Part shown: one piece after another, positions 1,934 through 49,082 of the stretch | Numbering within the stretch: position 1 is the first letter of the stretch | Layout of the letters: each line of letters begins with the position of its first letter | IMG/VR virus record: IMGVR_UViG_3300047548_001509 | Coordinates: 1-64,000 of that record | DNA length: 64,000 nt | Strand: one strand, 5' to 3' | Origin: a virus | Made by a program: the position numbers and the translations under genes | The notes under the pieces: model-generated | The model's database searches: none | What the model was told of the DNA's origin: nothing | The model's input: the letters and a program-made list of their open reading frames with translations, nothing else

Positions 1934-3547
1934 ATGCATTTTATAATTAAAACGAAAATTGAAACGTATTTAATCAATAATAATAGATCTTTTACTACAC
2001 CTCGTATACAAAATATAGATAAGATTTATAAATTACTAACACCTGAAGAGATTATATTCTTTGATGATTTTACAAAGGAATATAATGATAATTCCCGAAA
2101 GGTTGTTGCGTTTATCACAAACCAACCTAATAGACATAAATGTATTTGTGGTTCCTTTACTAAGTGGAATTCATCAACAGGTGAATATATGAAATATTGC
2201 TCTAGAAAATGTACCTGGGATGATAATGAAAATGTCCAGAAAGTGAAGAAAGAAACAAACATTAAGAAGTACGGGACTACAAATGTTCTAGCTAGTGCAT
2301 ATGGTAAAGAGAAAGCAAAGAAGACTCATCTTGAAAAGTATGGTGTAGAACATTATAACAAGACCCAGGAATATAAAGACCGGTTAGCATCAGGTGAAAT
2401 CATTAGACCTGAGACTTCTTATATTAAACAAAGTATTACAAAACGACGTAAGCATTATGATAATGTAATTACAAAGCACCCGAACGTTGAATGTATGTTT
2501 TCTTTTGATGATTATAAAGGATCTGGAGGATACAATAAACATCCCTGGCGGTGTAAAAAATGCGGTAAAGACTTTCAGTGTTATATTAACCCAAATACAC
2601 CTTTAGAGTGCCCATTTTGTGCCCCGAAAGGAACCAAACATGAGCAATTAATTAAGGATTTTCTTACAAAGCATGGTATCAGACATTATGATAGATACCG
2701 CAAACTACTACGTACTGTCGATGGTAAAACCAAAGAGTTAGATTTCTATCTTCCTGATCACAATTTAGGTATCGAAGTACATGGTCTTTATTGGCATTCA
2801 GAATTAAAGATCAATAAAAATCACGATGTAAACAAACTTAATTTATGTGAACAAAATGGCACTCGTTTGATATCAATATTTGATGATGAAATTTTTAATA
2901 AACAGCAAATTGTGTTTAACCGATTGAAATCAATTCTAGGTAAAACAAAATATAAGATATTTGCCCGTAAATGTGTAATTAAGAGTTTAAACTTTAAAGA
3001 AAAAGGCCGGTTTCTTAATAAGTATCACATTCAAGGAGATACAACCTCAACACATAACTATGGTCTTTACTATAAAAATAGATTAGTTGCTGTGTGTACG
3101 TTTAATAAAACCAGACAAATGTTTAAAACAACTACCAATAAGGTTGAAAACGAATTTGAACTTGTACGATATTGCACGGTCGGTTCTTTTTCGATAGTGG
3201 GTGGTTGTGGTAAAATGTTCAAACACTTTCTTAAAGATATAAACCCTTCTCAGGTTATATCCTATTGTGATCGTCGGTGGTCTCAAGGTAATATGTACAA
3301 ACAATTAGGCTTTAAATTACAAACTATTACACAACCTAATTACTGGTATACACATATGAGCTCTTGTAAAGAGAGATACTCACGATATATGTTTCAAAAA
3401 CACAAATTAAAGCAAATTCTTGAAAATTATAACGAAACACTCTCAGAACATCAAAATATGAGAAATAATAAATATATCAGAGTATACGATTGTGGGTCTT
3501 ATAAATTTGTCTATAAGACCCACAATCAAACTTCTGCGGGAGATTAA
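1934..3547 (+). CDS. Putative free-standing homing endonuclease (Vsr/PD-(D/E)XK-like) with KYG repeats, Zn ribbon and C-terminal GNAT/Mom-like domain
   Basis: KKYGTTNV/EKYGVEHY repeats; CKKC..CPFC; ELDFYLPDHNLGIEVHGLYWHS; C-terminal FARKC..FLNKYHIQG..ELVRYC..ISYCDRRWSQGNMYKQLGF. Confidence 0.7.
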   Translation: MHFIIKTKIETYLINNNRSFTTPRIQNIDKIYKLLTPEEIIFFDDFTKEYNDNSRKVVAFITNQPNRHKCICGSFTKWNSSTGEYMKYCSRKCTWDDNENVQKVKKETNIKKYGTTNVLASAYGKEKAKKTHLEKYGVEHYNKTQEYKDRLASGEIIRPETSYIKQSITKRRKHYDNVITKHPNVECMFSFDDYKGSGGYNKHPWRCKKCGKDFQCYINPNTPLECPFCAPKGTKHEQLIKDFLTKHGIRHYDRYRKLLRTVDGKTKELDFYLPDHNLGIEVHGLYWHSELKINKNHDVNKLNLCEQNGTRLISIFDDEIFNKQQIVFNRLKSILGKTKYKIFARKCVIKSLNFKEKGRFLNKYHIQGDTTSTHNYGLYYKNRLVAVCTFNKTRQMFKTTTNKVENEFELVRYCTVGSFSIVGGCGKMFKHFLKDINPSQVISYCDRRWSQGNMYKQLGFKLQTITQPNYWYTHMSSCKERYSRYMFQKHKLKQILENYNETLSEHQNMRNNKYIRVYDCGSYKFVYKTHNQTSAGD

Positions 3548-4915: not shown

Positions 4916-5836
4916 TTATTGCCGTGGTGTTTTAATGTGGTATCGCATTGGATCGCATAACTCGTAGTTTAGTAGATCTTCGCCTGTTGCTCTCTGTGGA
5001 CAGATATCAATTCCTCCGCGACGAGTATAAAGACACATTACATGTAGATCTGTTACATTTTCAAACGCGTTCAACCTTGTAAATATTGTTTCACAAATTT
5101 CTTCATGAAAGTGACATTCGTCTCTGAATGAAACAATATACTTTAAGAGTGAAACGTAATCAGGTTCCAAAGTAGATGTAAAAGAGATATAAACATCACC
5201 AAAATCTGGTTGAGAAGTTACACGACAATTACTCTTCAATAGAGAGCTATGAATTTTATAATGCTTTTTCTTTCTTTGAGATAAAAGGTTGAAAGCAATT
5301 AAACCAGGTTCTTCTTTGAAAACTGTAAATTCAACTCCTTCTCCAAGATTATCTATAGTAGTATAACCACTTTGCCATTCTTCTTGAGGTGAGCTAGTTC
5401 CAGATGCAAAAGCTTCTTGTGATGAATATACCGCAACAGATACTTGAGTTTCTAACAAATCAGACAAATCTCTTTCAGCATAGTATTTGATATTTTCAAA
5501 CACACTATTAATTGTTGGACCCATCTTTGTCATATTGAATGAATTAAAGTACAACTTAATAGACTTTGATTCAACAATATATGGGTTATCACAGCTGTAA
5601 ACCAGTTTAATGATACCAGTTACAGGCAACCCACTATCAGTTAATGCTGAAATTTCATATGCATTCCATGTATCGTATCCAACAAATGGAAGTTTATCTT
5701 CTTTGATACCTAGATGAACTCTATTAGAAGAGCGTGGTTCACGAACTAATAGAGTTGGGTCGTATTGAGAAGCATAAGCAGAAGATTTACCAAGGTGCTT
5801 TGAGATGTTTGAATTGTCTAATTCTTTAAGAGCCAT
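4916..5836 (-). CDS. queF: NADPH-dependent 7-cyano-7-deazaguanine (preQ0) reductase, bimodular QueF
   Basis: QueF motif VESKSIKLYFNSF; LKSNCRVTSQPDFG with catalytic Cys; FHEEICE; YTRRGGIDI. Confidence 0.95.
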   Translation of the reverse strand: MALKELDNSNISKHLGKSSAYASQYDPTLLVREPRSSNRVHLGIKEDKLPFVGYDTWNAYEISALTDSGLPVTGIIKLVYSCDNPYIVESKSIKLYFNSFNMTKMGPTINSVFENIKYYAERDLSDLLETQVSVAVYSSQEAFASGTSSPQEEWQSGYTTIDNLGEGVEFTVFKEEPGLIAFNLLSQRKKKHYKIHSSLLKSNCRVTSQPDFGDVYISFTSTLEPDYVSLLKYIVSFRDECHFHEEICETIFTRLNAFENVTDLHVMCLYTRRGGIDICPQRATGEDLLNYELCDPMRYHIKTPRQ

Positions 5837-5842
5837 ATAGAT

Positions 5843-5870
5843 ATTATATAATATTATTTGAGATATTCAA
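5843..5870 (-). promoter_or_regulatory. Sigma70-like promoter of queF, 16-nt spacer
   Basis: TTGAAT-N16-TATAAT, 6 nt before ATG. Confidence 0.6.
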
Positions 5871-6441
5871 TAATTGTTTTCATTCTTTTATCAATTGATC
5901 CTTTTAATCTCACCACTTCAGTATGCCTTGAAACTTCAATAATAGAATTTTCAAACATTTCAATGATTTGATCTCTAAATGTTTTAGATGATGATCTCTC
6001 TCCATCATCAACTAGTTTTACATCAGTCGGGTCAGTATAAAAAATACAGTCGTAGCCGCCAATAAGTAGGTCAAATGTTTCGTATGCATAATCTAGCGTT
6101 TCTTTTGATACTTTTTCTTCATCTTCATGATATAGCCAATTTGTGTAAATTACACCATCCCATATACATCTATCCATCACAACACTCTTTGGTGTGAGAT
6201 AATTTGTACCAGCTGTAATAACATTTGCAACATCCATGTTGTCTTCATGTTGATTGATAATTGCACGTTGTGTCTTATCGTCTCCATCTTCATTGATTGT
6301 AAATCCTTTAGATCTCAGCTGTCTGGTGATTTCTGGAAAGTAAATAAGTCGATCTCCAAATTGCTTTTCAATGAGATCTAGAAGAGTAGATTTACCTGTT
6401 GATTGTGCCCCTGAAAAGGAGAATATTTTTCCTGTGTTCAT
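5854..6441 (-). CDS. P-loop nucleotide kinase (AAA_28 / dNMP kinase-like)
   Basis: Walker A SGAQSTGKST; MDRCIWD; DDGERS lid-like segment. Confidence 0.8.
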   Translation of the reverse strand: MNTGKIFSFSGAQSTGKSTLLDLIEKQFGDRLIYFPEITRQLRSKGFTINEDGDDKTQRAIINQHEDNMDVANVITAGTNYLTPKSVVMDRCIWDGVIYTNWLYHEDEEKVSKETLDYAYETFDLLIGGYDCIFYTDPTDVKLVDDGERSSSKTFRDQIIEMFENSIIEVSRHTEVVRLKGSIDKRMKTIIEYLK

Positions 6442-6442
6442 A

Positions 6443-7015
6443 TTAACAATATTTTTCGTATGTTCCTCTAATAAATTTTAGAAAATTGGTTGTATAAAAT
6501 GCTAAGCTTGGTCCTGATGATTTGGTATAACATACCATATACAGTGTATTGCTATCATCTACCATGGGGCATAACATCGGCGCAACAACAAACCAATACT
6601 TTTCATCTTTTGTCTTCATGAAAGGTATGAATTTCAATTTACTCCATACCTCCCAATTTTCAATATCACAAAACAAATAGATTGATCTGCAATTCAATTC
6701 AAAAGAACGCAACCAAATATCATTGAAAAGTTCTCGGAATAGTCCTTGTTTTCTAAATTTCGGAACCGTATAAGTGCGTTGGATATATAGAGATTTTTCT
6801 CCCGTGTAATCAGAGTGTGTTGTGTAATTATAAAATATAATACTTGCTAACTCTCCATCAATAGTTATACATCTCGGCGGGTAAGAAAACCACATATGCT
6901 TCTCATCCCAATTTGGTATATAATCTTCCTGAAATATCTGCTTCGTTTCATCGTCGCAGCTCTCTAACAAAAAGAGAAGCACATCTTTTTCTAAATGCAA
7001 AAACTTCTTACCCAT
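6443..7015 (-). CDS. GNAT-family N-acyltransferase
   Basis: Acyl-CoA-binding motif A LYIQRTYTVPKFRKQGLFREL; motif-B-like WSKLKF. Confidence 0.75.
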   Translation of the reverse strand: MGKKFLHLEKDVLLFLLESCDDETKQIFQEDYIPNWDEKHMWFSYPPRCITIDGELASIIFYNYTTHSDYTGEKSLYIQRTYTVPKFRKQGLFRELFNDIWLRSFELNCRSIYLFCDIENWEVWSKLKFIPFMKTKDEKYWFVVAPMLCPMVDDSNTLYMVCYTKSSGPSLAFYTTNFLKFIRGTYEKYC

Positions 7016-7016
7016 A

Positions 7017-7802
7017 TCAACGAACTATCTCTCTAAACTTCATAATGTTGAAATCGATTAATTTCTTCTGTTCATCTGTTAGAACAATTTCCAGATTATC
7101 AGCAAGAAGTCCTTTTGGCTTTTGATTTACTCCAAGTCCAGGTGCATATCTCATATTGTTAATACCACACATAATAGGGTTAGATGTATCTACACTTCTA
7201 ATAGACTGCGTAACATTTTTGTATATAGAAAACTCCTTAGGAAGGGAACATCCGAGAAGATGATGCGGTTTATTAGCTCTCCATATCCCATGTGTAATAA
7301 GATCTGAGATTAATCTTTGGCGTCCGGTACACATTTTTTCAAGCTTAGTACTACCCCGCCCCGTATATTGATAATAAGAATAATCAAAAGAAATAGCGAT
7401 GTAATCACAATTGAATGCCATAAACTCATAGCACTCAACAATCTCTTGATATGTTTTTCCTTGTACAACACCAATTTTAAATCCTGGAAGATCAGGATAT
7501 GTACTAGTGAACTGCTTATATAATTCAATAGTATGTTTAGTATCTTCTAAACTATCTGGTACAATGTAATGAGTGGGTCTGAGTTCTTTAATAATCTCTG
7601 CATATCTATTCAAATCAAATGCAACTCCAAGTTCAAAAATTGAATTATCAAGAAGTACCTCAATATTGTTTTGAACGCATCTCTTAAAATGGCTATAGTA
7701 TTCTGGATACTTATCACACAAATGAACGAGGCAATACTGGTAGTCGTTATAAATTATCGACTCTCTTAGAAGTTCTAGCGGCGATTCGTGTGATATAAGC
7801 AT
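7017..7802 (-). CDS. dpdA: TGT-fold guanine transglycosylase, DpdA-like (7-deazaguanine insertion)
   Basis: TGT barrel motifs LLDNS, IVPD, GVVQG, YIAISF, HHLLG, RSVDTS; same run of genes as queF. Confidence 0.75.
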   Translation of the reverse strand: MLISHESPLELLRESIIYNDYQYCLVHLCDKYPEYYSHFKRCVQNNIEVLLDNSIFELGVAFDLNRYAEIIKELRPTHYIVPDSLEDTKHTIELYKQFTSTYPDLPGFKIGVVQGKTYQEIVECYEFMAFNCDYIAISFDYSYYQYTGRGSTKLEKMCTGRQRLISDLITHGIWRANKPHHLLGCSLPKEFSIYKNVTQSIRSVDTSNPIMCGINNMRYAPGLGVNQKPKGLLADNLEIVLTDEQKKLIDFNIMKFREIVR

Positions 7803-7856: not shown

Positions 7857-8471
7857 ATGGGTTTGACAAATAGAGTAGTAAATTATAGTAGACAGATTAA
7901 TAATACATTTGATCAGTTTACATCTGTGGCCGCTGGAGCTCTTTGTTTGGGACGGTCTATTGTCTCTCTTATTACAAATCCTGGAGCAGCTATTGGTGGT
8001 ATAGGGCAGATTATTGCTAACTCTGTAATGGGTTCTATATCCGTGTTTAGTAATTTCTTAAGAGGTCAGCTAAACAGAATATTATATTCAACGTTTGGTA
8101 TAATTGTGGGTGCTCAGCAACTCATTATTGATGTGGCTCGTAGTATAAATTTCATTACGTCTGTTGTAACTAGTACCATACAATCTATATTTGCACGAGC
8201 TGATTATCTTAGAGGTTTAATTTCTGGTCAAGAAAATTGTCAGCATATTTTATCTTACATGATTTCTTGCTTTATGAATAAAACAAGCGGAATCACTAAC
8301 GATAAAAAGGCTTTACGAGCACTTAGTGACATTAATAACATTGAACAGTCAACATTAAATCTACTTTACGACACGTTCAAGCAAGATGATTTTAATAGGT
8401 TCGTTGATAAATACGAAAACGAAGCTTATAAGCTTCAAACACAAATCACAAAAACGAGACAGATTTTATAA
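7857..8471 (+). CDS. Hypothetical helical protein, probably tail/baseplate associated
   Basis: TAAATA 7 nt upstream; coupled to the gp5-like ORFs. Confidence 0.55.
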   Translation: MGLTNRVVNYSRQINNTFDQFTSVAAGALCLGRSIVSLITNPGAAIGGIGQIIANSVMGSISVFSNFLRGQLNRILYSTFGIIVGAQQLIIDVARSINFITSVVTSTIQSIFARADYLRGLISGQENCQHILSYMISCFMNKTSGITNDKKALRALSDINNIEQSTLNLLYDTFKQDDFNRFVDKYENEAYKLQTQITKTRQIL

Positions 8472-9106
8472 TGAATCCATCATATCTAACAAACGATACA
8501 GGGATAACAACTTATGGTGGTCTCTATAAGGGTATTATTATTGATACAAATAGTGAGCTTGGTCTTGTTAAATGTTTTGTTCCAGAAATTTATGGATATG
8601 ATATTAATGACATTGTGTCTCTAGACCAGCTGATACCATCCTTTGTTTACAAATTTCCTGGTAAAAATATTCAATCAAATTTAGACAGAAAAACCCTAGA
8701 CCAAATTAAAAATATACCCTGGGCCAGAATATCTGGTCCAATTATTGGTGATTGTTCTCCAGGTCGATATATTCCAGAAATAGACGCAGCTACTGTTGGT
8801 GATGGAACCAACCCTCTCAAGCTTATCACACCCGGGTCTGTTGAATCTGCAAAAGCTAAATCCTATAAACAGAACCCCCCAAAAGGTTCATCTGGGTTAG
8901 AAAATATGCTACCAAAACGCAATCCATATGAATATGCTTTTGGTCCAGAAAATTTTGATAATCTTCCAAAAGGTACATTTGGTATTCCTAACATTGGTGC
9001 TCAAGTTTGGGTTATGTTTGTACGTGGAGATCATAATTTTCCAGTCATTATGGGAAGTGCAAATAGTACTTTAGAATATTCACAAATTAATTACGATGCC
9101 AGATAA
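8471..9106 (+). CDS. gp5: Baseplate hub gp5-like N-terminal (OB-fold) protein
   Basis: YKGIIIDTN..GLVKCFVPEI..IPWA..FGIPNIGAQVWVMFVRGDHNFPVIMG. Confidence 0.8.
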   Translation: MNPSYLTNDTGITTYGGLYKGIIIDTNSELGLVKCFVPEIYGYDINDIVSLDQLIPSFVYKFPGKNIQSNLDRKTLDQIKNIPWARISGPIIGDCSPGRYIPEIDAATVGDGTNPLKLITPGSVESAKAKSYKQNPPKGSSGLENMLPKRNPYEYAFGPENFDNLPKGTFGIPNIGAQVWVMFVRGDHNFPVIMGSANSTLEYSQINYDAR

Positions 9107-10979
9107 AACACAATTTGATTCATTTGAAAATAAACCACCAGCAATAATAGTAAATGACCATGGTGGTTCAATATCAATAACAAATAAAACCGGAAAAGAA
9201 AAGGTAAATATAACCCACAGAAGCGGTGCTTCTATTGAATTGAACCCCGTACAGACTTCTATATTTTCTCCTGAGAATAGAAGTGATGTAACAAATAACG
9301 ATGAGTTTAAAACCATAAAGGGTGACTTAGTTGAGTATGTAAACAGTACAAAATCTGTATCTGTTAATAGAGATCTAGTTACAACTATTGGTAATGCAAA
9401 AGCTTTTCTTTCAAATGCACCTCAACAATTTTTAAATAAGTGGGGTGAAATTGCTGCTCCTTTTGTTAAGGGGGATCTTAATAGACCGCTAAGATATGTT
9501 GTTGCAGGTTTACCTATTGATCAATATCCAGAAGACTCCGGAGAGGCAGTAACAATAAGATTGAATGACGCGCTCGAGCAATTAAAAAACAATTTCTGCT
9601 CATCACTCACTTCTAATTTAGATAACCCACCGGTATTAAATGACTTCTTAGTGGATTTTGATGAACTGTTTACACTGATAAAAGAAGCAATTACAGTAAT
9701 AACCGGTTCTATCTACACAGCAATTGACGATCTTATTACAACAATTACTCAAGAAGCAATTGACGCGTTTTATGAAATATTAAATGAACTAGTTGCTGAG
9801 TTAAAGCAATTACTATTTGAGGTATTATGTCAATTTTTGACTGTACCAGCCCAACTTGTTGAATTTGTGAATGCATATCTTAATAGCATATCACAAGCTG
9901 TACGTAGCGTTATTGACCCATTAATTAAAGAAGAACCTCAATCATCTGAAGGTAATACATATACTCAAAATGATAAGTCTTCTCTTCATGAATATCTCAT
10001 ACAAAAGAATGAAGAGCTTCTTGCATATGAGCAGGCTCTTGGTGTCGGTGGTAATTCAACTACAAATATTCTAAAGAATAAAATGGTTAATATTGGTGGT
10101 GGGTTTAATATGACCTCACCAATATCTATTGACCCACATGGGACAGAAGTTGCTGCTGCTCCTTTAATTGATAAGTGGCAAGGTGTAACAACATTAAATG
10201 GAGGTATACCAAAACTAGAAAGATCAACAATTAATGATGCTTGTGATGTTGGTAATTACACTATCACTATTGGAAACAAGTTTAATATACTAACAGGTGG
10301 TGGTGGTGTTAGAATTGACACAAATGGACCTCTTGATCTACAAGCTCCAATGATCAATTTAGTTGGCCATGGAGTTGATATGTCAGGAGAAGTAGTAAAG
10401 GTAAATGCTTCGAGTGGTATATTATTTGACTCAAAGAATTTTCTCACTCTTAGAGCCCCATTTTCAATTGCACTAGATGGTAACTGCCAAGTTACAAAAA
10501 ACATGGTTGTTCAAGGCGGTTCATACATTAATGGTGAGTTATATGTGAACCATATAACAGCTCCTCTTGAAATGCAAGAGACTATGGAACAAGAAAGTGC
10601 AACTGGTATTTTTACCCCAGAAGCTACGTTCATATTTACTAACTTAACACCTCTTATTGGTACTGAAGCAGGTGGTGTTGTAACTATTCCGTCACAAGCT
10701 ATAACATTTCAGGTTACTGCTAATATACCAGGTATTGATCCTGTCACAGTTAAACCACACATTCACAAATTTCCAAATATACCTCTTCGACTCACAAAAG
10801 GTACTACAATTAATTCTGAAACTGGTTTAGATGCATTTGATGTAAGTGACCCACTTGCACTTGGATTTAATTCAGCCCATTCCAAACTTCGTGAACTTGC
10901 TCAAGCAACTCTTTCAACCGAAACTGCTAATGCTTACAAAATAAATGAAGGTAACAAATGGGATCAAGCATTAACTTGA
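9096..10979 (+). CDS. Baseplate central spike, gp5-like C-terminal part
   Basis: TGKEKVNITHRSGASIE, beta-helix-like repeats, late HxH motif (PHIH). Confidence 0.65.
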   Translation: MPDKTQFDSFENKPPAIIVNDHGGSISITNKTGKEKVNITHRSGASIELNPVQTSIFSPENRSDVTNNDEFKTIKGDLVEYVNSTKSVSVNRDLVTTIGNAKAFLSNAPQQFLNKWGEIAAPFVKGDLNRPLRYVVAGLPIDQYPEDSGEAVTIRLNDALEQLKNNFCSSLTSNLDNPPVLNDFLVDFDELFTLIKEAITVITGSIYTAIDDLITTITQEAIDAFYEILNELVAELKQLLFEVLCQFLTVPAQLVEFVNAYLNSISQAVRSVIDPLIKEEPQSSEGNTYTQNDKSSLHEYLIQKNEELLAYEQALGVGGNSTTNILKNKMVNIGGGFNMTSPISIDPHGTEVAAAPLIDKWQGVTTLNGGIPKLERSTINDACDVGNYTITIGNKFNILTGGGGVRIDTNGPLDLQAPMINLVGHGVDMSGEVVKVNASSGILFDSKNFLTLRAPFSIALDGNCQVTKNMVVQGGSYINGELYVNHITAPLEMQETMEQESATGIFTPEATFIFTNLTPLIGTEAGGVVTIPSQAITFQVTANIPGIDPVTVKPHIHKFPNIPLRLTKGTTINSETGLDAFDVSDPLALGFNSAHSKLRELAQATLSTETANAYKINEGNKWDQALT

Positions 10980-11959
10980 TACCACCGAACTGAATTATAA
11001 AGTTGGTCCACTCTTCTAACACCAGCATATGATATACCCGATTGTATATCTTGTTTGATCTCTTCGAGTTTCTCTAAATATGTCATTCCATTAGAATCCA
11101 CAACAATTAATGTACCTTCTACATTATTGTTATGCCCTTTATTGTGAAAGCTTGCTGAACCAAAGTATGATTTTTTGTTACCTGATTCTGTTCGTATTTC
11201 AGGAGAAGGGGAGTCGATACATTCTGCAAAAAGTTTACCAGACATAACCCAATCTGCCCCAGCTACTAATGCTTTGACAATATCACCATTATGTTTAATG
11301 CCACCATCTGCAATAATCATACAATTCTTTACCTGTTCATTACAACACATCTCTCTTCGTAATGCTATATTGGTTATGCAAGAAAACATAGGCATTGTAA
11401 ATCCTGTTTTGAGTTTCGTGGTGCATGCGGCCCCTGGTCCTACGCCACTCTTAACGGCATGACAACCCCACGTAGCAAGATCAAAAAATCCCTCAAACGT
11501 ACATACATTACCACCAATAACAAAACATGGTAACTCTTCTCGAATAAATTCTACCATTTTTTTGACAAGCTCATGATGACCATGAGCTACATCAACAGTT
11601 ATGTGTGTTACGCGTAATCTTGAATTTTTGATTTTGTTGATTAGATCAAAATCTTCCTTTTTAACACCGACTGATATTGATATTACGTCCCAATTTTCTC
11701 TGTTAGCCTTTTTAACGAAGTCAAAAACATCACCGAATCTATGCATTATATAGAAATAACCTCCCTTATATAACATTTTTGCAACATGTTCATCGACAAC
11801 ACACTTCATATTTGCAGGTATTACCGGGATATTATAACTGCTAACCCCCATACGTTGTGTTGTTATTGCATTAGATCTGGTATCTAAGTTTGAAAAATTG
11901 GGAATTAGACATACGTCATCATATGACAACGCCAAGGTTGGCGGATTCGAAATAGACAT
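10964..11959 (-). CDS. guaC: GMP reductase
   Basis: YDDVCLIP, PANM, VDVAHGH, GVGPGAACTTKLKTGF, IADGGI, YFGSAS; no CBS domain. Confidence 0.9.
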   Translation of the reverse strand: MSISNPPTLALSYDDVCLIPNFSNLDTRSNAITTQRMGVSSYNIPVIPANMKCVVDEHVAKMLYKGGYFYIMHRFGDVFDFVKKANRENWDVISISVGVKKEDFDLINKIKNSRLRVTHITVDVAHGHHELVKKMVEFIREELPCFVIGGNVCTFEGFFDLATWGCHAVKSGVGPGAACTTKLKTGFTMPMFSCITNIALRREMCCNEQVKNCMIIADGGIKHNGDIVKALVAGADWVMSGKLFAECIDSPSPEIRTESGNKKSYFGSASFHNKGHNNNVEGTLIVVDSNGMTYLEKLEEIKQDIQSGISYAGVRRVDQLYNSVRWYQVNA

Positions 11960-11995: not shown

Positions 11996-12997
11996 TTAAA
12001 AGTCGTCTTCGATTAGAGCACCAGCGGATTGATAAGCTTGTACTTTACTCTCAAAGAAGTTTTTCATCTTTTTGAGATCTTGGGTTTCAGATAAGAAGTC
12101 AAATGGATTTTCTTTTTCAGGGAAACGAAACTTCATATTAACACCTTCAAGTCTTCTGTTGCCAATATATTGCATATAGTCAAGAAAACTCTCTGATTTT
12201 AGCCCAAGAATACCACGAGGTAAAACATCCTGCGCATACTTTATCTCAAGTTCAACAGCTTCTTTTAGATAACCTGTAAGCTCTTGTTCGAATTCATCAG
12301 TCCATGCAAGTGGGTTTTGCTCTTTAATTTTGTTAATAAGCATTGTTCCAAATTTAATATGGTTAGATTCATCTCGTAACGTATATTCAATTTGTTCACC
12401 AATGCCTGGTATTTTCTTTTTCATCGCAAGTAACATTGCAAATCCAGAGAAAAAGAATGTGCCTTCACAAATAATCCAATAAAGGAATGCAGCTTTAAGA
12501 ATTTCCCTAACCCCTTCAATAGTTGAAACATCAATATCAACTTTGAGATTTTTTGTGACGTTCATTAAGAACTCGTCTTTAGCTTTAATAGCTGGAACTG
12601 TTGCATAAGCTTCATACACTTCTTCAATATTAAGGTTTAAAGAATCACAAATATAAACAATAGTGTCGTTATGCAGGCATTCTTCCCAGATTTGCCGAGA
12701 CATATATTGTCTACATTCTGGGTCCGTAATATGTCTAAACAATGATACAAGATTATTACCAACTAATGATTCAGAGCCTGCAAAGAATCCAAGCGTACGT
12801 TTAATAACAAGTTTTTCGTCTTCAGTTAATTTATCCGAACGCCAGTTACTGATATCAACATTCATTGGAATCTCTTCAGGGTTCCAATTATTATTTTTAC
12901 CAACCTTATATAAATCCCACGCCCATTTATGAACATGAGGTAGAATTTGATTTACGCTTTCTTTTTTATCGCCTAGAATTTTTCCGTCTTTTTTCAT
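11996..12997 (-). CDS. nrdB: Ribonucleotide reductase beta subunit, class Ic (R2c)-like
   Basis: FFAGSESLVGNN, EECLH, EGTFFFSGF, RDESNH, KNFFE; radical Tyr position occupied by Ile. Confidence 0.92.
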   Translation of the reverse strand: MKKDGKILGDKKESVNQILPHVHKWAWDLYKVGKNNNWNPEEIPMNVDISNWRSDKLTEDEKLVIKRTLGFFAGSESLVGNNLVSLFRHITDPECRQYMSRQIWEECLHNDTIVYICDSLNLNIEEVYEAYATVPAIKAKDEFLMNVTKNLKVDIDVSTIEGVREILKAAFLYWIICEGTFFFSGFAMLLAMKKKIPGIGEQIEYTLRDESNHIKFGTMLINKIKEQNPLAWTDEFEQELTGYLKEAVELEIKYAQDVLPRGILGLKSESFLDYMQYIGNRRLEGVNMKFRFPEKENPFDFLSETQDLKKMKNFFESKVQAYQSAGALIEDDF

Positions 12998-43455: not shown

Positions 43456-44076
43456 TTACAATACGCCTCGGTTATTCTGAGCAAATTCAACGAATTTATA
43501 AAATTCAGCCCGGGATGCTCCATCAATATCATGGAAAGCTCCAGACACTCTCGCTGTGCGCATGCAACTAGGGTGCTTAATTCCGCGTGCTGAACAACAT
43601 GTATGATTTGCTTCAATCATTACTGCAACACCTTTATTATCAATGCATACACTATCGATAGTCTCGTGGATCTTCTTAGTAAGAGATTCTTGAACTGATG
43701 GTCTACGACTAATGTGGTCAACAATTCTATTTAATTTTGACAATCCTATCATTTTGCCATCTCGAGATGGGATATAAGCAACATGCGCATACCCAGAAAA
43801 GGTAAGCAGATGATGTGCGCAAAGTGATACTAATGGAATATTAGTTTGACATACCATTCCATCGTATTGTTCATCATTTGCAAAAGATGTAATAGTTGGT
43901 GGATCAGTAAAAAGGCCTTTCATAAGGTCATTAATCCAGGATTTAATAACTCTTTTAGGTGTGTCCTGCATATGTGGATCAGTATCCCAATTAATATTGA
44001 GAGACTTAAGTACATGACCCATATGGGTAGTAGCATCTATAATATTTTGTTCTGTAATATTAATTTTATCGATCAT
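43456..44076 (-). CDS. folE: GTP cyclohydrolase I
   Basis: DTPKRV, SLCAHHL, GLSKLNR, RRPSVQE, HTCCSARG. Confidence 0.95.
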   Translation of the reverse strand: MIDKINITEQNIIDATTHMGHVLKSLNINWDTDPHMQDTPKRVIKSWINDLMKGLFTDPPTITSFANDEQYDGMVCQTNIPLVSLCAHHLLTFSGYAHVAYIPSRDGKMIGLSKLNRIVDHISRRPSVQESLTKKIHETIDSVCIDNKGVAVMIEANHTCCSARGIKHPSCMRTARVSGAFHDIDGASRAEFYKFVEFAQNNRGVL

Positions 44077-44759: not shown

Positions 44760-45437
44760 ATGAGTAATTTTATTTCAACAAAAGTTATTGAATTGGGTTC
44801 AAGTGCGTTCAGACAGTGGAGAGCAACACACAGCCATTGCCAATATATTCATGGGTACCAGCTTAAAGCAAAATTTTGGTTTACATGTAGTAAATTAGAT
44901 GAAAAGCACTGGTGTGCTGATTTTGGAGGTCTTAAGCCGTTAAAGGAAGCTTTGCAAGCAGTATTTGATCATAAATTACTCGTAGCAGCTGATGATCCCT
45001 GCCTTGAAGATTTTAAATCTCTCGAACAAAAAGGTGTTGTAAAATTGTCAATTTTTCCAAAGGGTGTTGGTATTGAAAGAGCTGCTGAATATTGTTTTGA
45101 AGTTGCACAAGATTTTATTCACCAGACGTATGGACCAAGAGTTCAAGTTAGTAGAGTAGAAGTATTTGAACACGAAGATAATTCAGCTGTTTATGAATCT
45201 TGTGCAAAATATGAAAAATATTTATCTAAAGTACAATCAATGATTGCAGAAGCAATTTCACAACCAGATGAAAACCCACAGGATGGAAGTGTAACCGGTA
45301 CTATGACCTCAATTGAAGAGTCTCCCTGGGGTACACCGGTTACAGAATTAACAGTCACACCACATCAGCCAGCACAGATCTCACAACAAGTAACCTCTGG
45401 TCGTGGTAATTGGTTTGCTGGTACTTCTTGGCAATAA
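44760..45437 (+). CDS. queD: 6-carboxytetrahydropterin synthase-like (QueD/PTPS) with low-complexity C-terminal tail
   Basis: HCQYIHGY, DFGGLK, FDHKLL, VEVFEH. Confidence 0.85.
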   Translation: MSNFISTKVIELGSSAFRQWRATHSHCQYIHGYQLKAKFWFTCSKLDEKHWCADFGGLKPLKEALQAVFDHKLLVAADDPCLEDFKSLEQKGVVKLSIFPKGVGIERAAEYCFEVAQDFIHQTYGPRVQVSRVEVFEHEDNSAVYESCAKYEKYLSKVQSMIAEAISQPDENPQDGSVTGTMTSIEESPWGTPVTELTVTPHQPAQISQQVTSGRGNWFAGTSWQ

Positions 45438-46249: not shown

Positions 46250-47059
46250 ATGATTGATATTGATAAAGAGTTTTTAACTGTCGGTGGTGTAGGTGGGGAA
46301 CCAGAAATTTTTGCAACACTCGAGGGTGAAGGCAGATATGTTGGACAACCTTCAATTTTTATTCGAATGGCTACATGTAATTTAACATGTAGTGCGTGGG
46401 CTTCTCCAGACTCTCCAAATGGATGTGATTCATATGTATCATGGTCGGTTAAGAACAAAATTACATTTCGTAAGGCATTTGAAATCTTAGAAGGGTTGAA
46501 TGCAATTCAACGACTAAAAGATGGTTGGATTCTAAAACTCACAGGCGGTGAACCATTTATTAGACAAAAAGAGCTTTATAAATTTGTTCAAGCTCTTGGT
46601 CAGGAATATGGAATAAACAAACCAAAAATTGATTTTGAGACAAATGGTACAATAATGCCAGATTGTAAAATGTGGGGATGGGATGATTCCAATAGTTTCT
46701 CAAACCTATGGATTGATAATAATGTAACGTTTACTACTTCACCAAAACTATCTACAAATGGTGATCCTGAAGAAAAGACATACAAGCCAGAAGTACTTAG
46801 ATTTTTGAAGAAAAATTATGCATGTTTTAAATTCGTGATTACAGGGGAAAGAGACATTGAAGAAATTTGGAGAAAATACGTAGAAGATAAAGAAGGGATT
46901 AATATCACAAGGGATATGATTTGGTTTATGCCTTGTTGTGGTTCTCGACAGGAGCATATTGAAAGAGCAACTACAGTAGCAGAGTATGCGAAATCAATGG
47001 GTGTTAACTTTTCTCCAAGGTTGCATTTGATACTCTGGGACAAAAGTCTAAGAGTGTAA
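46250..47059 (+). CDS. queE: 7-carboxy-7-deazaguanine synthase (radical SAM)
   Basis: EIFATLEGEG, CNLTC-x11-CDS, LTGGEP, FETNGT, SPKL, SPRLH. Confidence 0.92.
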   Translation: MIDIDKEFLTVGGVGGEPEIFATLEGEGRYVGQPSIFIRMATCNLTCSAWASPDSPNGCDSYVSWSVKNKITFRKAFEILEGLNAIQRLKDGWILKLTGGEPFIRQKELYKFVQALGQEYGINKPKIDFETNGTIMPDCKMWGWDDSNSFSNLWIDNNVTFTTSPKLSTNGDPEEKTYKPEVLRFLKKNYACFKFVITGERDIEEIWRKYVEDKEGINITRDMIWFMPCCGSRQEHIERATTVAEYAKSMGVNFSPRLHLILWDKSLRV

Positions 47060-47077: not shown

Positions 47078-47686
47078 ATGGTAATAACAAAAAAAATCGA
47101 TTTCGAGATGGCACATATTGTGCGTAACGCATGGTCTCGAAGATGTTCACATAGTATTCATGGTCATAGCTACACAGCAGAGATCATGATTGAATCAAAA
47201 GAGTTTGATAGTGGTGGAATGGTTATGGACTTTGGTCTTGTTAAAAAATATATTCACCCATTTATCGATTCCTTTGATCATGCAACTATGTTGTGGAATC
47301 AAGATGACCCAGAGATTATATCATTATTTGAGAACAAATTTGAACGTGTAATTGTATCACCATTTACATCTTCTTGTGAGCAACAAGCCCGGTATTTTTA
47401 TTGGATTATTAATGAAATTATTGAATATGTAAAAGTTATAGACCCACAAGTTTCAAACCGATATGTATCAGTTCGTGGTGTGAGAATACACGAAACCAAA
47501 ACAGGAAGTGCATTTTATACGTCACATAATGCAAAATCAGAAGATAACAAATTTAAGTATACAGATGTGTATAATGATATTGTAAGTATTAAATTTTCTG
47601 ATGGTATAATTAGTGAATGGCCTAAAGAAATACAACATATCTATCATGATATTTTTGATATAGATCCACAGAAACTAGGAAATTGA
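47078..47686 (+). CDS. queD: Second QueD/PTPS-family protein
   Basis: FEMAHIVR..CSHSIHGHSY, GMVMDFG, FDHA, IHET. Confidence 0.85.
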   Translation: MVITKKIDFEMAHIVRNAWSRRCSHSIHGHSYTAEIMIESKEFDSGGMVMDFGLVKKYIHPFIDSFDHATMLWNQDDPEIISLFENKFERVIVSPFTSSCEQQARYFYWIINEIIEYVKVIDPQVSNRYVSVRGVRIHETKTGSAFYTSHNAKSEDNKFKYTDVYNDIVSIKFSDGIISEWPKEIQHIYHDIFDIDPQKLGN

Positions 47687-47714: not shown

Positions 47715-48341
47715 ATGATTAAGCACAAAAGTAAAATACTTAAGCTAAATGCTAACTACATGCCTATTGATGTGGGTGATTGGAAAGATATTATGGTTAA
47801 TATCGTTTCTGGTGCCGCATATCCTGTAGATGTGCAGTATGCTCAAGATGAAGATGGAAAGTATACCAATAAAATTGAATCTTTCTTCCCAGTAAAATCT
47901 TGGAAAGACTGGGAAGAACTTTCTATTAGAGAATGTGACGAGTATGTTATTGGCGCTACAAAGACTTACAGGTTACCTGTTGTTGTAATTTGCTCAAGAT
48001 ATGATCAGGTTAGATGGGGACATTCAGTATTCCCAACTAGTAGAAACATTTATAAGAGAGATAATTATACATGTCAGTATACTGGGAAAAAATTACAAAA
48101 ACATGAGCTGTCTGTAGACCACATTATACCAGTCTCAAAAGGTGGTCAAAATACCTGGACTAATCTTGTTTGTTGTGATAGGGAATTAAATAGTTGGAAA
48201 GGTTCACGTACCCTAAAAGAATGTGGTCTTAAGCTGATTAATAAACCTATTCAACCAACAAATGGTGTTAATAGGGTGTTCGAATTCATGAAAGATGAAT
48301 GGAATATTTTTCTTGGTGGAGATTACGACAGTACATATTAA
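47715..48341 (+). CDS. HNH endonuclease
   Basis: RDNYTCQY..SVDHIIPVSKGG..WTNLV..N..K. Confidence 0.88.
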   Translation: MIKHKSKILKLNANYMPIDVGDWKDIMVNIVSGAAYPVDVQYAQDEDGKYTNKIESFFPVKSWKDWEELSIRECDEYVIGATKTYRLPVVVICSRYDQVRWGHSVFPTSRNIYKRDNYTCQYTGKKLQKHELSVDHIIPVSKGGQNTWTNLVCCDRELNSWKGSRTLKECGLKLINKPIQPTNGVNRVFEFMKDEWNIFLGGDYDSTY

Positions 48342-48350
48342 AATAAGGTT

Positions 48351-49082
48351 ATGAGAATTTGCGTTTCTGGTCCCCAATGTACAGGTAAATCAACATTCAT
48401 TAAAGATTTCTTGAGTGAGTGGCCAAAGTATAAGACAACAAAAAAGACATATAGGGACATTATTACTGAGAATAATTTAACACATTCATCGGTAACAACA
48501 GAAGAAACACAACGAAAAATTCTCGATTGGATGGTCATCGAGGGGAGGAAGTACTCCCCTCGTGACAAAATTATCTTTGATCGTGGACCGCTTGACAATT
48601 TAGTTTATACAATGTGGGCAGCTGGCAATGGGTTGGTTTCTGAAGAATTCTTTAAAGAAACGACAAAGCGAGTAAAGAATGCGCTAAAATATGTAGATTT
48701 AATTATCATCATTCCTACAGACCCATCTATTAAGATGGAAGATGATAATCTAAGAGATACAAATATTCAATATCAAAAAGATATTAATGACATCTTTCTG
48801 TTTTTGCATGATCAATACAAAAACAACTTTGAATCAGATGTTTTCTTCCCATATAATGACTCCCCGGGGGTAATAACCATTAGTGGCACGAGAGAGCAAA
48901 GAATATCGTATCTTAAACAGAACTATTTTGATAGTAGTGGTGATATCTACGGTGATGAGCATTCTATTCTCAATCCAGATCATCTTGATATGATTGAAGA
49001 TTTGATTGAATATCAAGAAGGTAGTCTTAAAGCTGAAAAAGAGATCGAAGAAAAGATCAAAAAGCTGAAAAACGGACTTTAA
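48351..49082 (+). CDS. P-loop nucleotide kinase (AAA_28-like)
   Basis: SGPQCTGKST, FDRGPLD, DDNLRD. Confidence 0.8.
   Translation: MRICVSGPQCTGKSTFIKDFLSEWPKYKTTKKTYRDIITENNLTHSSVTTEETQRKILDWMVIEGRKYSPRDKIIFDRGPLDNLVYTMWAAGNGLVSEEFFKETTKRVKNALKYVDLIIIIPTDPSIKMEDDNLRDTNIQYQKDINDIFLFLHDQYKNNFESDVFFPYNDSPGVITISGTREQRISYLKQNYFDSSGDIYGDEHSILNPDHLDMIEDLIEYQEGSLKAEKEIEEKIKKLKNGL

Follow-up and report, generated by a model that had tools for sequence, protein, structure and literature searches.

A GNAT-fold candidate for the acylation of preQ1 in the DpdA3 cassette of a freshwater T4-like phage

Gene content of the cassette

The DNA analysed here, called the window, is a stretch of 64,000 nucleotides from the IMG/VR virus record IMGVR_UViG_3300047548_001509, and is the first 64 kb of a viral contig of 82,782 bp for which CheckV gives a completeness of 39%. 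It comes from a freshwater, T4-like phage. Our subject is a run of four minus-strand genes at positions 4916-7802, and in particular the second of them, which encodes a protein of the GNAT fold and is a candidate for the enzyme that tailors the amine of preQ1. In the order of the cassette the genes are:

7017-7802, minus strand: DpdA3-type 7-deazaguanine transglycosylase homologue, 261 amino acids (aa), first gene of the cassette (PHROG 19058)
6443-7015, minus strand: GNAT-fold protein, 190 aa (Pfam PF00583, family profile, AlphaFold2 model and Foldseek)
5854-6441, minus strand: P-loop kinase of the AAA_28 type, 195 aa (AAA_28, PHROG 2107)
4916-5836, minus strand: two-domain QueF, 306 aa (QueF_N and QueF)

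The four open reading frames (ORFs) are co-oriented and are separated in the ORF listing by gaps of 1, 1, and 17 nucleotides (nt), which agrees in coordinates and spacing with a preliminary description of this DNA as four tightly packed genes with gaps of 1-17 nt. The junction between dpdA3 and the GNAT gene reads TGA-T-ATG, placing the GNAT start 1 nt past the dpdA3 stop, and the four genes form one tightly coupled operon. The identical four-gene order is found in four further viral contigs (L005-L008), while a fifth (L009) has DpdA3 and GNAT up to the contig end; because the order recurs, the arrangement is not due to chance. The identities given in the preliminary description were also borne out: those of the GNAT, the kinase, and QueF by Pfam and profile searches, together with AlphaFold2 and Foldseek for the GNAT and an alignment with 3bp1 for QueF, while the gene called dpdA appears by homology to be of the DpdA3 type.

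The DpdA3-type protein

The 261-aa protein matches PHROG 19058 with an E value of 4.5e-54. By tblastn it is 45% identical over 98% of its length to the "DNA guanine transglycosylase" of Flavobacterium phage immuto (gp206), 43% identical over 99% to Campylobacter phage CP220 gp056, and 27% identical over 78% (E 2e-6) to the CGPG_00065 region of phiST, so that homology extends to all three founders of the DpdA3 subfamily. The co-encoded genes for 7-deazaguanine synthesis by which the subfamily is also recognized are present, with FolE, QueD, QueE, and QueF in the window and QueC on the same contig. More general searches gave less: tRNA-guanine transglycosylase (TGT) was not among the PDB sequences matched by a profile search with this protein, the sole Pfam match was to DUF6610 (23.6 bits, under the cut-off), and the nearest ESM Atlas clusters are viral, one automatically named transglycosylase and one with PF23859 DpdA in 17% of its members. 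A TGT fold is presumed because CGPG_00065 was reported, in the text of the 2023 NAR paper that named the DpdA3 family (PMC10516641), to be a distant TGT/DpdA homologue by HHpred (98.8% to PF01702). The same text names immuto and CP220 as DpdA3 carriers, reports that guanine is fully replaced in the DNA of the three DpdA3 phages analysed so far, and argues for post-replicative insertion; DpdA3 was not made to work in E. coli, and the preQ1-inserting DpdA2 of VH7D yielded 2765 dPreQ1 per 10^6 nt there (PMC10516641).

Fold and conserved residues of the GNAT

The 190-aa protein matches Pfam Acetyltransf_1 (PF00583) with 21.9 bits, the cut-off being 20.7. When a profile of 14 family sequences was compared with the PDB, Gna1 (E 3.8e-7) and PaiA (2.7e-6) were found, and SSAT2 was also matched. 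An AlphaFold2 model built from 8 sequences has a pLDDT of 92.7; it replaced an earlier model from 3 sequences (pLDDT 67.5), whose fold search agreed with the later one. All listed Foldseek matches of the model in the PDB are GNAT-type acyltransferases, including the AtaT toxin; the top match is PaiA (1tiq, E 4e-8, TM 0.57/0.64), and most listed fold neighbours are N-acetyltransferases acting on primary amines, such as PaiA, SpeG, Ard1, RimI, and Naa50/60. The GNAT fold is thus found by the model, by Foldseek, and by the profile comparison with the PDB. The PurN-like domain that characterizes the formyltransferase DpdN is absent, the 190-aa protein having no match to PF00551 (Formyl_trans_N).

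Eleven residues are invariant in 14 of 14 family members: D21, D31, W36, W42, P47, R80, R88, G91, Y140, P146, and N156. The family also shares a conserved C-terminal extension of two helices past the GNAT core. In GNATs, motif A, the pyrophosphate-binding loop, has the form R/Q-x-x-G-x-G/A. The corresponding sequence of the window protein is R88-K-Q-G91-L-F93, in which R88-x-x-G91 matches the start of the motif; at its end the DpdA3-linked members have Phe, and Ala occurs in P0009 and L010 only. At the motif-B position 11 of the 14 members have a Tyr, which in the alignment falls on the Tyr that we take to be the general acid of Gna1 and PaiA. The window GNAT does not have this Tyr, but a Trp (W124), shared only with its relatives P0002 and P0003. 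Many GNATs manage without a motif-B Tyr, and the exchange weakens, but does not exclude, catalysis in the subclade of the window protein.

Distribution and linkage of the GNAT family

The family is small and bound to its context. A word-based search of 5.8 billion proteins returned three including the query, the relatives being P0002 (54% identical) and P0003 (49%), and these three Trp-bearing proteins have mutual identities of 49-54%. An exhaustive HMMER search of 1.84 billion representatives gave seven matches at E<=1e-3, among them a repetitive protein of 1152 aa that was left unused, its match spanning 25 residues. The genomic contexts of P0002 and P0003 were sought by a single-protein search of viral contigs, in which none was confirmed, by an alignment (A1) with which 0 of 402 metagenome stretches and 0 of 59 viral stretches were confirmed, and by a degenerate DNA pattern, which had 0 matches in metagenome contigs. 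A wider alignment (A2) alone recovered GNAT loci, namely seven in IMG/VR. By tblastn against 50,697 phage records the GNAT had no match, so no cultured phage with this protein was found.

The preliminary description had allowed that homologues of the GNAT might be unlinked to dpdA and queF. This objection fails: DpdA3 lies immediately upstream in five of the seven IMG/VR loci (L005-L009), and the kinase and QueF lie immediately downstream in four of those five, L009 stopping at its contig end. The genes of the DpdA3-GNAT loci overlap by 4 nt. The capsid and ribonucleotide reductase (RNR) proteins of all contigs with GNAT loci are 60-78% identical to those on the contig of the window. Between L006 and L008 the ratio of nonsynonymous to synonymous substitution rates (dN/dS) of the GNAT gene is 0.16, with dS 0.65; DpdA3 and the kinase each have a ratio of 0.07, and QueF has one of 0.18, so the GNAT is under purifying selection like the neighbouring genes. 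Because the DpdA3 proteins of the window and L009 are 64% identical but their GNATs only about 30%, the comparison suggests that GNAT alleles are swapped between phages or evolve fast. PF00551 was found in 0 of the 5 GNAT-bearing records searched, and it is absent from the contig of the window. One GNAT-bearing record (G001), of 184.5 kb with terminal repeats and 100% complete, has QueC and FolE but no formyltransferase.

The other two loci (7905-8477 in both L010 and L011) hold distant relatives that are 25% identical to the query and near-identical to each other. These follow directly after the gene for the RNR small chain (nrdB) in related phages, with an Hsp20 gene next in L011, and have stronger Pfam GNAT scores and the canonical R-x-x-G-x-A motif.

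The slot between dpdA3 and the kinase gene

IMG/VR was scanned with an alignment of DpdA3, which matched at least 596 stretches. Tblastn confirmed at least 526 of these, and the survey covers the best 80. Their ORFs were called and labelled by BLASTP. Since these loci are ranked by similarity, the following counts are not population frequencies:

56 of 80 loci: slot empty (DpdA3-kinase-QueF)
13 of 80 loci: slot with a DpdN-like formyltransferase, in 4 of them with extra genes
1 of 80 loci: slot with a GNAT (L085, from the contig of L008)
4 of 80 loci: kinase present, adjacent QueF absent
4 of 80 loci: adjacent kinase absent
2 of 80 loci: interrupted by the contig end

Where the slot is empty (56 loci), the distance between DpdA3 and the kinase is -50 to +5 nt, which makes the GNAT a precise insert; the 5-kb flanks of these loci have no GNAT or DpdN elsewhere. 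When DpdN-like genes were checked by Pfam, those of L004 and L082 gave PF00551. The alternation of GNAT and DpdN in this slot, which the preliminary description had suggested as a point for a synteny survey, was therefore observed, and it takes place between dpdA3 and the kinase gene. The slot behaves as a swappable tailoring module that is empty, formyl, or, as predicted, acyl. In a quick tree of DpdA3, from which L085 and L091 (the contigs of L008 and L004) and L010 and L011 (without DpdA3) were left out, six rows with GNAT fall in two places and 14 rows with DpdN in up to four; with the long-branch warnings that accompany this tree, no conclusion is drawn on the number of gains of either gene.

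Several surveyed loci have additional genes or lack expected ones. Genes of homing-endonuclease type lie between DpdA3 and DpdN in L061 (5842-6648, GIY-YIG), L089 (5817-6590, NUMOD3), and L063 (2533-3339, without a Pfam label), and it is possible that such genes drive exchange of the cassette. In L004 (6791-9133, the contig of L091), five genes lie between DpdA3 and the kinase, namely HIT, a 68-aa ORF, DpdN-like, OCD/mu-crystallin (E 2e-67), and DUF1599, the last of these by a weak match to a "nucleotide modification associated" family; this insert may represent a more elaborate, undescribed tailoring route. DpdA3 is without an adjacent kinase or QueF in L073, L077, L081, and L083, where the opposite strand encodes a protein of about 685 aa, the copy in L073 having CHASE2 and adenylate/guanylate cyclase domains by Pfam. 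In L057, L069, L071, and L072, which are the nearest rows to the window and L009 in the quick tree, DpdA3 and the kinase are present with no adjacent QueF, and these phages may make a base other than preQ1; L057 also has a weak SprT-like match on the opposite strand. The kinase of L038 (3117-3668) is split into ORFs of 105 and 72 aa by a frameshift or assembly error, the slot being otherwise empty.

Kinase, QueF, and the preQ0 pathway

The 195-aa kinase matches AAA_28 (55 bits, E 1.4e-14) and PHROG 2107 (E 7e-24). A profile of nine homologues matched a deoxynucleoside kinase (8puu, 8.7e-5) and the ribosylnicotinamide kinase NadR (6gye, 1.3e-4), followed by thymidylate and guanylate kinases. 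It is 32% identical to both immuto gp203 and CP220 gp057. A kinase of this family is downstream of DpdA3 in 76 of the 80 surveyed loci as well as in immuto and CP220; it adjoins DpdA3 at L001 9472-9996, at L002 6819-7361, and in most of L012-L091. The 2023 DpdA3 paper does not mention it (PMC10516641; 0 occurrences). Since its closest solved relatives are kinases of nucleosides and nucleotides, DpdA3 systems may include a step at the level of nucleotides.

The QueF motif is E(S/L)K(S/A)hK(L/Y)(Y/F/W). The 306-aa protein matches QueF_N (105.9 bits) and QueF (64 bits), both over the Pfam cut-offs, while its score with TIGR03138 is 234 bits, under the equivalog cut-off of 293. It aligns with Vibrio cholerae QueF (3bp1, E 9e-41) such that ESKSIKLYF and LLKSNC are matched, and so has the domains, the QueF motif, and the catalytic Cys of a two-domain (YqcD type) enzyme; it is 43% identical to immuto QueF.

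FolE, QueD, QueE, and QueC lead to preQ0, which QueF converts to preQ1. The genes folE, queD, and queE had been placed elsewhere in the window by the preliminary description and are found there, and queC is just beyond its end:

43456-44076, minus strand: FolE, GTP cyclohydrolase I, first step to preQ0 (PF01227, E 2.3e-47; 50% identical to immuto FolE)
44760-45437, plus strand: QueD (6-carboxytetrahydropterin synthase) with a C-terminal extension (PF01242; PHROG 2389, E 2.7e-35)
46250-47059, plus strand: QueE-like radical SAM enzyme (CDG synthase) (PHROG 2076 "QueE-like", E 3.4e-42)
contig positions 64345-64980: QueC, just beyond the end of the window

The QueD is 39-40% identical to those of immuto and phiST, and the best NCBIfam matches of the QueE-like protein are all QueE models, with scores far under their cut-offs.

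Comparison with known systems

The window encodes a 7-deazaguanine modification system of the DpdA3 type that differs in its candidate tailoring enzyme, and that is most readily compared with the system of immuto. The annotated order in immuto is DpdA (gp206), a 50-aa ORF, a "phosphoribosylglycinamide formyltransferase" (gp204, YP_010114479.1), a "thymidylate kinase" (gp203), and QueF (gp202). The formyltransferase is the DpdN of immuto, described as a "preQ1 or dPreQ1" formyltransferase, and the DNA of this phage contains 345,000 fdPreQ1 per 10^6 nt, no peak for dG being left (PMC10516641). Because the order is DpdA3-[50-aa ORF]-DpdN-kinase-QueF in immuto and DpdA3-GNAT-kinase-QueF in the window, the GNAT occupies the position of DpdN. 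The two phages agree in gene order and orientation and have orthologues of DpdA3 (45% identical), the kinase (32%), QueF (43%), FolE (50%), and QueD (40%), and in each a gene for tailoring the preQ1 amine, in the window the candidate GNAT, follows dpdA3. They differ in that the tailoring gene of immuto encodes a PurN-like formyltransferase while that of the window encodes a GNAT-fold protein, PF00551 being absent from the GNAT-bearing records, and in that the product is a formamide in immuto but a predicted acetamide in the window; the GNAT-bearing phages are known here from sequence alone. The GNAT is thus a positional and presumably functional analogue of DpdN, but, without PF00551, not a member of that family.

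A GNAT acting on an aminomethyl group in DNA has a precedent in PaMx11 gp48, which is described by Lee et al. (NAR 2021/22, PMC8989533) as acetylating 5-aminomethyl-dU to 5-acetylaminomethyl-dU in DNA oligonucleotides. Like the protein of the window it is a small phage GNAT encoded beside a P-loop kinase, and the group that it acetylates is an aminomethyl in the major groove, carried by a hypermodified base, as is predicted for the window; it differs in acting at C5 of thymidine rather than at C7 of 7-deazaguanine, and in belonging to a different pathway. A specific relationship between the two GNATs was considered and rejected, the hhalign probability being 36.8% over 61 columns that comprise motifs A and B only. 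The window kinase was likewise rejected as a DNA kinase of the 5-hmdU type, since it aligns with PaMx11 gp49 only in the P-loop (27 columns). DpdM is similar in acting on the same preQ1 amine in phage DNA, but has an unrelated fold and chemistry and is found in DpdA1/DpdA2 systems with low modification levels (PMC10516641). In CP220 the DpdA3 (gp056, 43% identical) is directly followed by the same kinase family (gp057), but there is neither QueF nor a tailoring gene, and the base is dADG, synthesis stopping at CDG (PMC10516641). An HD-domain dGTPase, as in the HD/P-loop protein beside the DpdA3 of CP220, was not found on the 82.8-kb contig, which is 39% complete. A role resembling those of DpdN and PaMx11 gp48, in which an aminomethyl group is capped as an amide, seems somewhat more probable than not for the window GNAT.

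Proposed function and alternatives

If the genes act as their families would suggest, FolE, QueD, QueE, and QueC of the phage would make preQ0, and QueF, to judge from its family membership and intact motifs, would reduce this to preQ1 and expose a primary aminomethyl group. The DpdA3-type enzyme would insert the base into DNA, and the GNAT would cap the amine of preQ1 by adding an acyl group to it, the most probable being acetyl, donated by acetyl-CoA. The predicted product in DNA would be 7-(acetamidomethyl)-7-deazaguanine, with a nucleoside [M+H]+ of about 338 (dPreQ1 296.1 + 42), and guanine in the phage DNA would be replaced by this tailored 7-deazaguanine. On balance we think it somewhat probable that the GNAT N-acylates the aminomethyl group of preQ1, with acetyl as the likeliest group, a proposal favoured by the position and distribution of the gene. 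The GNAT may act on the free base, on a nucleoside or nucleotide, or on DNA; we lean towards a soluble substrate rather than DNA, because the adjacent kinase resembles nucleoside and nucleotide kinases and the top sequence and fold matches of the GNAT are acetyltransferases of small-molecule amines.

A number of observations weigh against N-acylation of preQ1. The GNAT is found in no cultured phage, and since all contigs with the gene are related by their capsid and RNR proteins, the GNAT loci represent one phage group whose recurring linkage to DpdA3 is largely shared ancestry and not independent evidence. Two of the seven loci with GNAT relatives (L010 and L011) follow nrdB and have no DpdA3 on their contigs, which end early. 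In the protein itself, the Pfam score is barely over the cut-off, motif A closes with Phe in place of Gly or Ala, and the Trp found for the motif-B Tyr, in the window GNAT as in the two homologues nearest to it, calls for real caution about the predicted activity. The 80 surveyed loci are a similarity-ranked sample and not a census, and the slot, which also holds unrelated cargo (homing endonucleases, HIT, and OCD), is possibly a hot spot for insertions in general. The preliminary description had proposed that the GNAT acetylates the preQ1 amine; position and distribution speak for that claim, W124, the unrelated cargo of the slot, and the single lineage speak against it, and the chemistry remains conditional.

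The cargo of the slot also bears on the possibility that the GNAT was carried into an insertion hot spot and acts not on the base but on another target, such as a polyamine, a tRNA, a molecule resembling an antibiotic, or a protein of host or phage. In other contigs the same slot is occupied by homing endonucleases and by proteins of the HIT and OCD families, GNATs are common as phage accessory genes (159 BFVD matches at E<=0.001), and the distant relatives in L010 and L011 adjoin nrdB, not DpdA3. The family is nevertheless almost confined to the slot (the window and five of seven loci), the gene is translationally coupled on both sides and under a purifying selection that matches that of its neighbours, and in the one complete genome (G001) it excludes DpdN. 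Moreover, the enzyme known from this slot, DpdN, is predicted to tailor the amine in a phage with measured fdPreQ1 in its DNA (PMC10516641), and we regard a role away from the base as rather unlikely. If the GNAT does act on the aminomethyl group of preQ1, it might still transfer a group other than acetyl, from another acyl-CoA or an aminoacyl donor, to give a different N-acyl-preQ1. The GNAT fold leaves the donor unfixed; the unusual R-x-x-G-x-F of motif A in the DpdA3-linked members, the Trp at motif B in the subclade of the window, and the conserved C-terminal two-helix extension would be compatible with another donor, and AtaT, which acts on aminoacyl-tRNA, is among the fold neighbours. 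The best sequence and fold matches, however, are the acetyl-CoA enzymes Gna1, PaiA, SSAT2, and SpeG, the protein is small and has no additional domain for a large donor, and the formyl counterpart DpdN points to simple capping of the amine; we consider a non-acetyl donor unlikely. The substitution at motif B could also mean that the GNAT of the window subclade is non-catalytic and has been kept to bind DpdA3 and the kinase or to serve them as a scaffold, in which case the DNA would contain plain dPreQ1. The restriction of the Trp to the window protein, P0002, and P0003 and the marginal Pfam score agree with this, but the three Trp-bearing proteins retain all other residues invariant in the family (including R80, R88, G91, and Y140), other GNATs work without this Tyr, and the reading frame is unbroken and remains coupled to the genes on either side, which makes loss of catalysis very improbable.

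Other genes of the window

Further genes were noted outside the cassette. A T4-type Gp23 capsid gene was recognized by family match:

341-1819: T4-type Gp23 capsid gene

The G+C content of the window is about 33%. Among public sequencing runs, the two strong matches came from one freshwater metagenome sample, perhaps the contig's own source, and no RNA run was among the matches listed. By Pfam, the gene at 11996-12997 encodes an RNR small chain. Between the capsid gene and the cassette region, a protein of 537 aa (1934-3547, plus strand) has DUF7487 and a weak match to a Vsr-like endonuclease, and is probably a homing-type endonuclease. Beside the queD/queE cluster there is a second AAA_28 kinase of 243 aa (48351-49082, plus strand), and a second paralogue of the PTPS/QueD family (47078-47686, plus strand) is 26% identical to the first; the latter was considered as a DpdL decarboxylase and rejected at the BLAST level, having no similarity to phiST CGPG_00067. 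An HNH endonuclease gene (47715-48341) lies between this paralogue and the second kinase. One further gene is related to guanine metabolism:

10964-11959, minus strand: GMP reductase-like protein (NF003966, 307.9 bits, cut-off 344; IMP dehydrogenase, 138 bits)

This gene is 3 kb from the cassette and has homologues of 47-55% identity in L006-L009, and its product could draw down the guanine nucleotides where G is being replaced by the phage. Its proximity, the resemblance of the cassette kinase to nucleotide kinases, and the small-molecule type of the GNAT matches make a soluble, pre-replicative route worth considering. By such a route the guanine nucleotide pool would be remodelled through DpdA3, the kinase, and the GMP reductase; tailoring by the GNAT or DpdN would take place on preQ1 as a soluble nucleoside or nucleotide, and the polymerase would incorporate an acylated deazaguanine dNTP. 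The content of the slot (none, formyl, or acyl) would be swapped among related phages, aided by homing endonucleases, in an arms race against restriction enzymes and defence glycosylases specific for the side chain. We hold this scheme to be tentative and rather doubtful.

Implications for DNA modification in phages

According to the text of PMC10516641, eight 7-deazaguanine derivatives are known in phage DNA, and the tailoring of the preQ1 amine described so far in the literature consulted is by methyl and formyl groups only. The preliminary description knew of no report of the acetylated base; in agreement with this, no description of an acetylated preQ1 base, or of a GNAT in a dpdA cluster, turned up in the literature searched, the supplementary tables of PMC10516641 aside. 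If N-acetylation of preQ1 by the GNAT is true, N-acetyl-dPreQ1 would be a further natural DNA base and the GNAT would belong to a new enzyme family that makes it; such a small GNAT could be used to derivatise aminomethyl-deazapurines in DNA. Defence glycosylases attack DNA containing 7-deazaguanine, and of the homologues that were tested the majority restrict a phage with 7-deazaguanine and not preQ0 or G+ phages (bioRxiv 10.1101/2025.10.29.685425). Because host glycosylases distinguish side chains in this way, the swapping of side chains would be a plausible counter-defence. The position after dpdA3 is seen here as a modular slot for tailoring genes, in a group of phages that is abundant, with at least 526 related stretches in IMG/VR.

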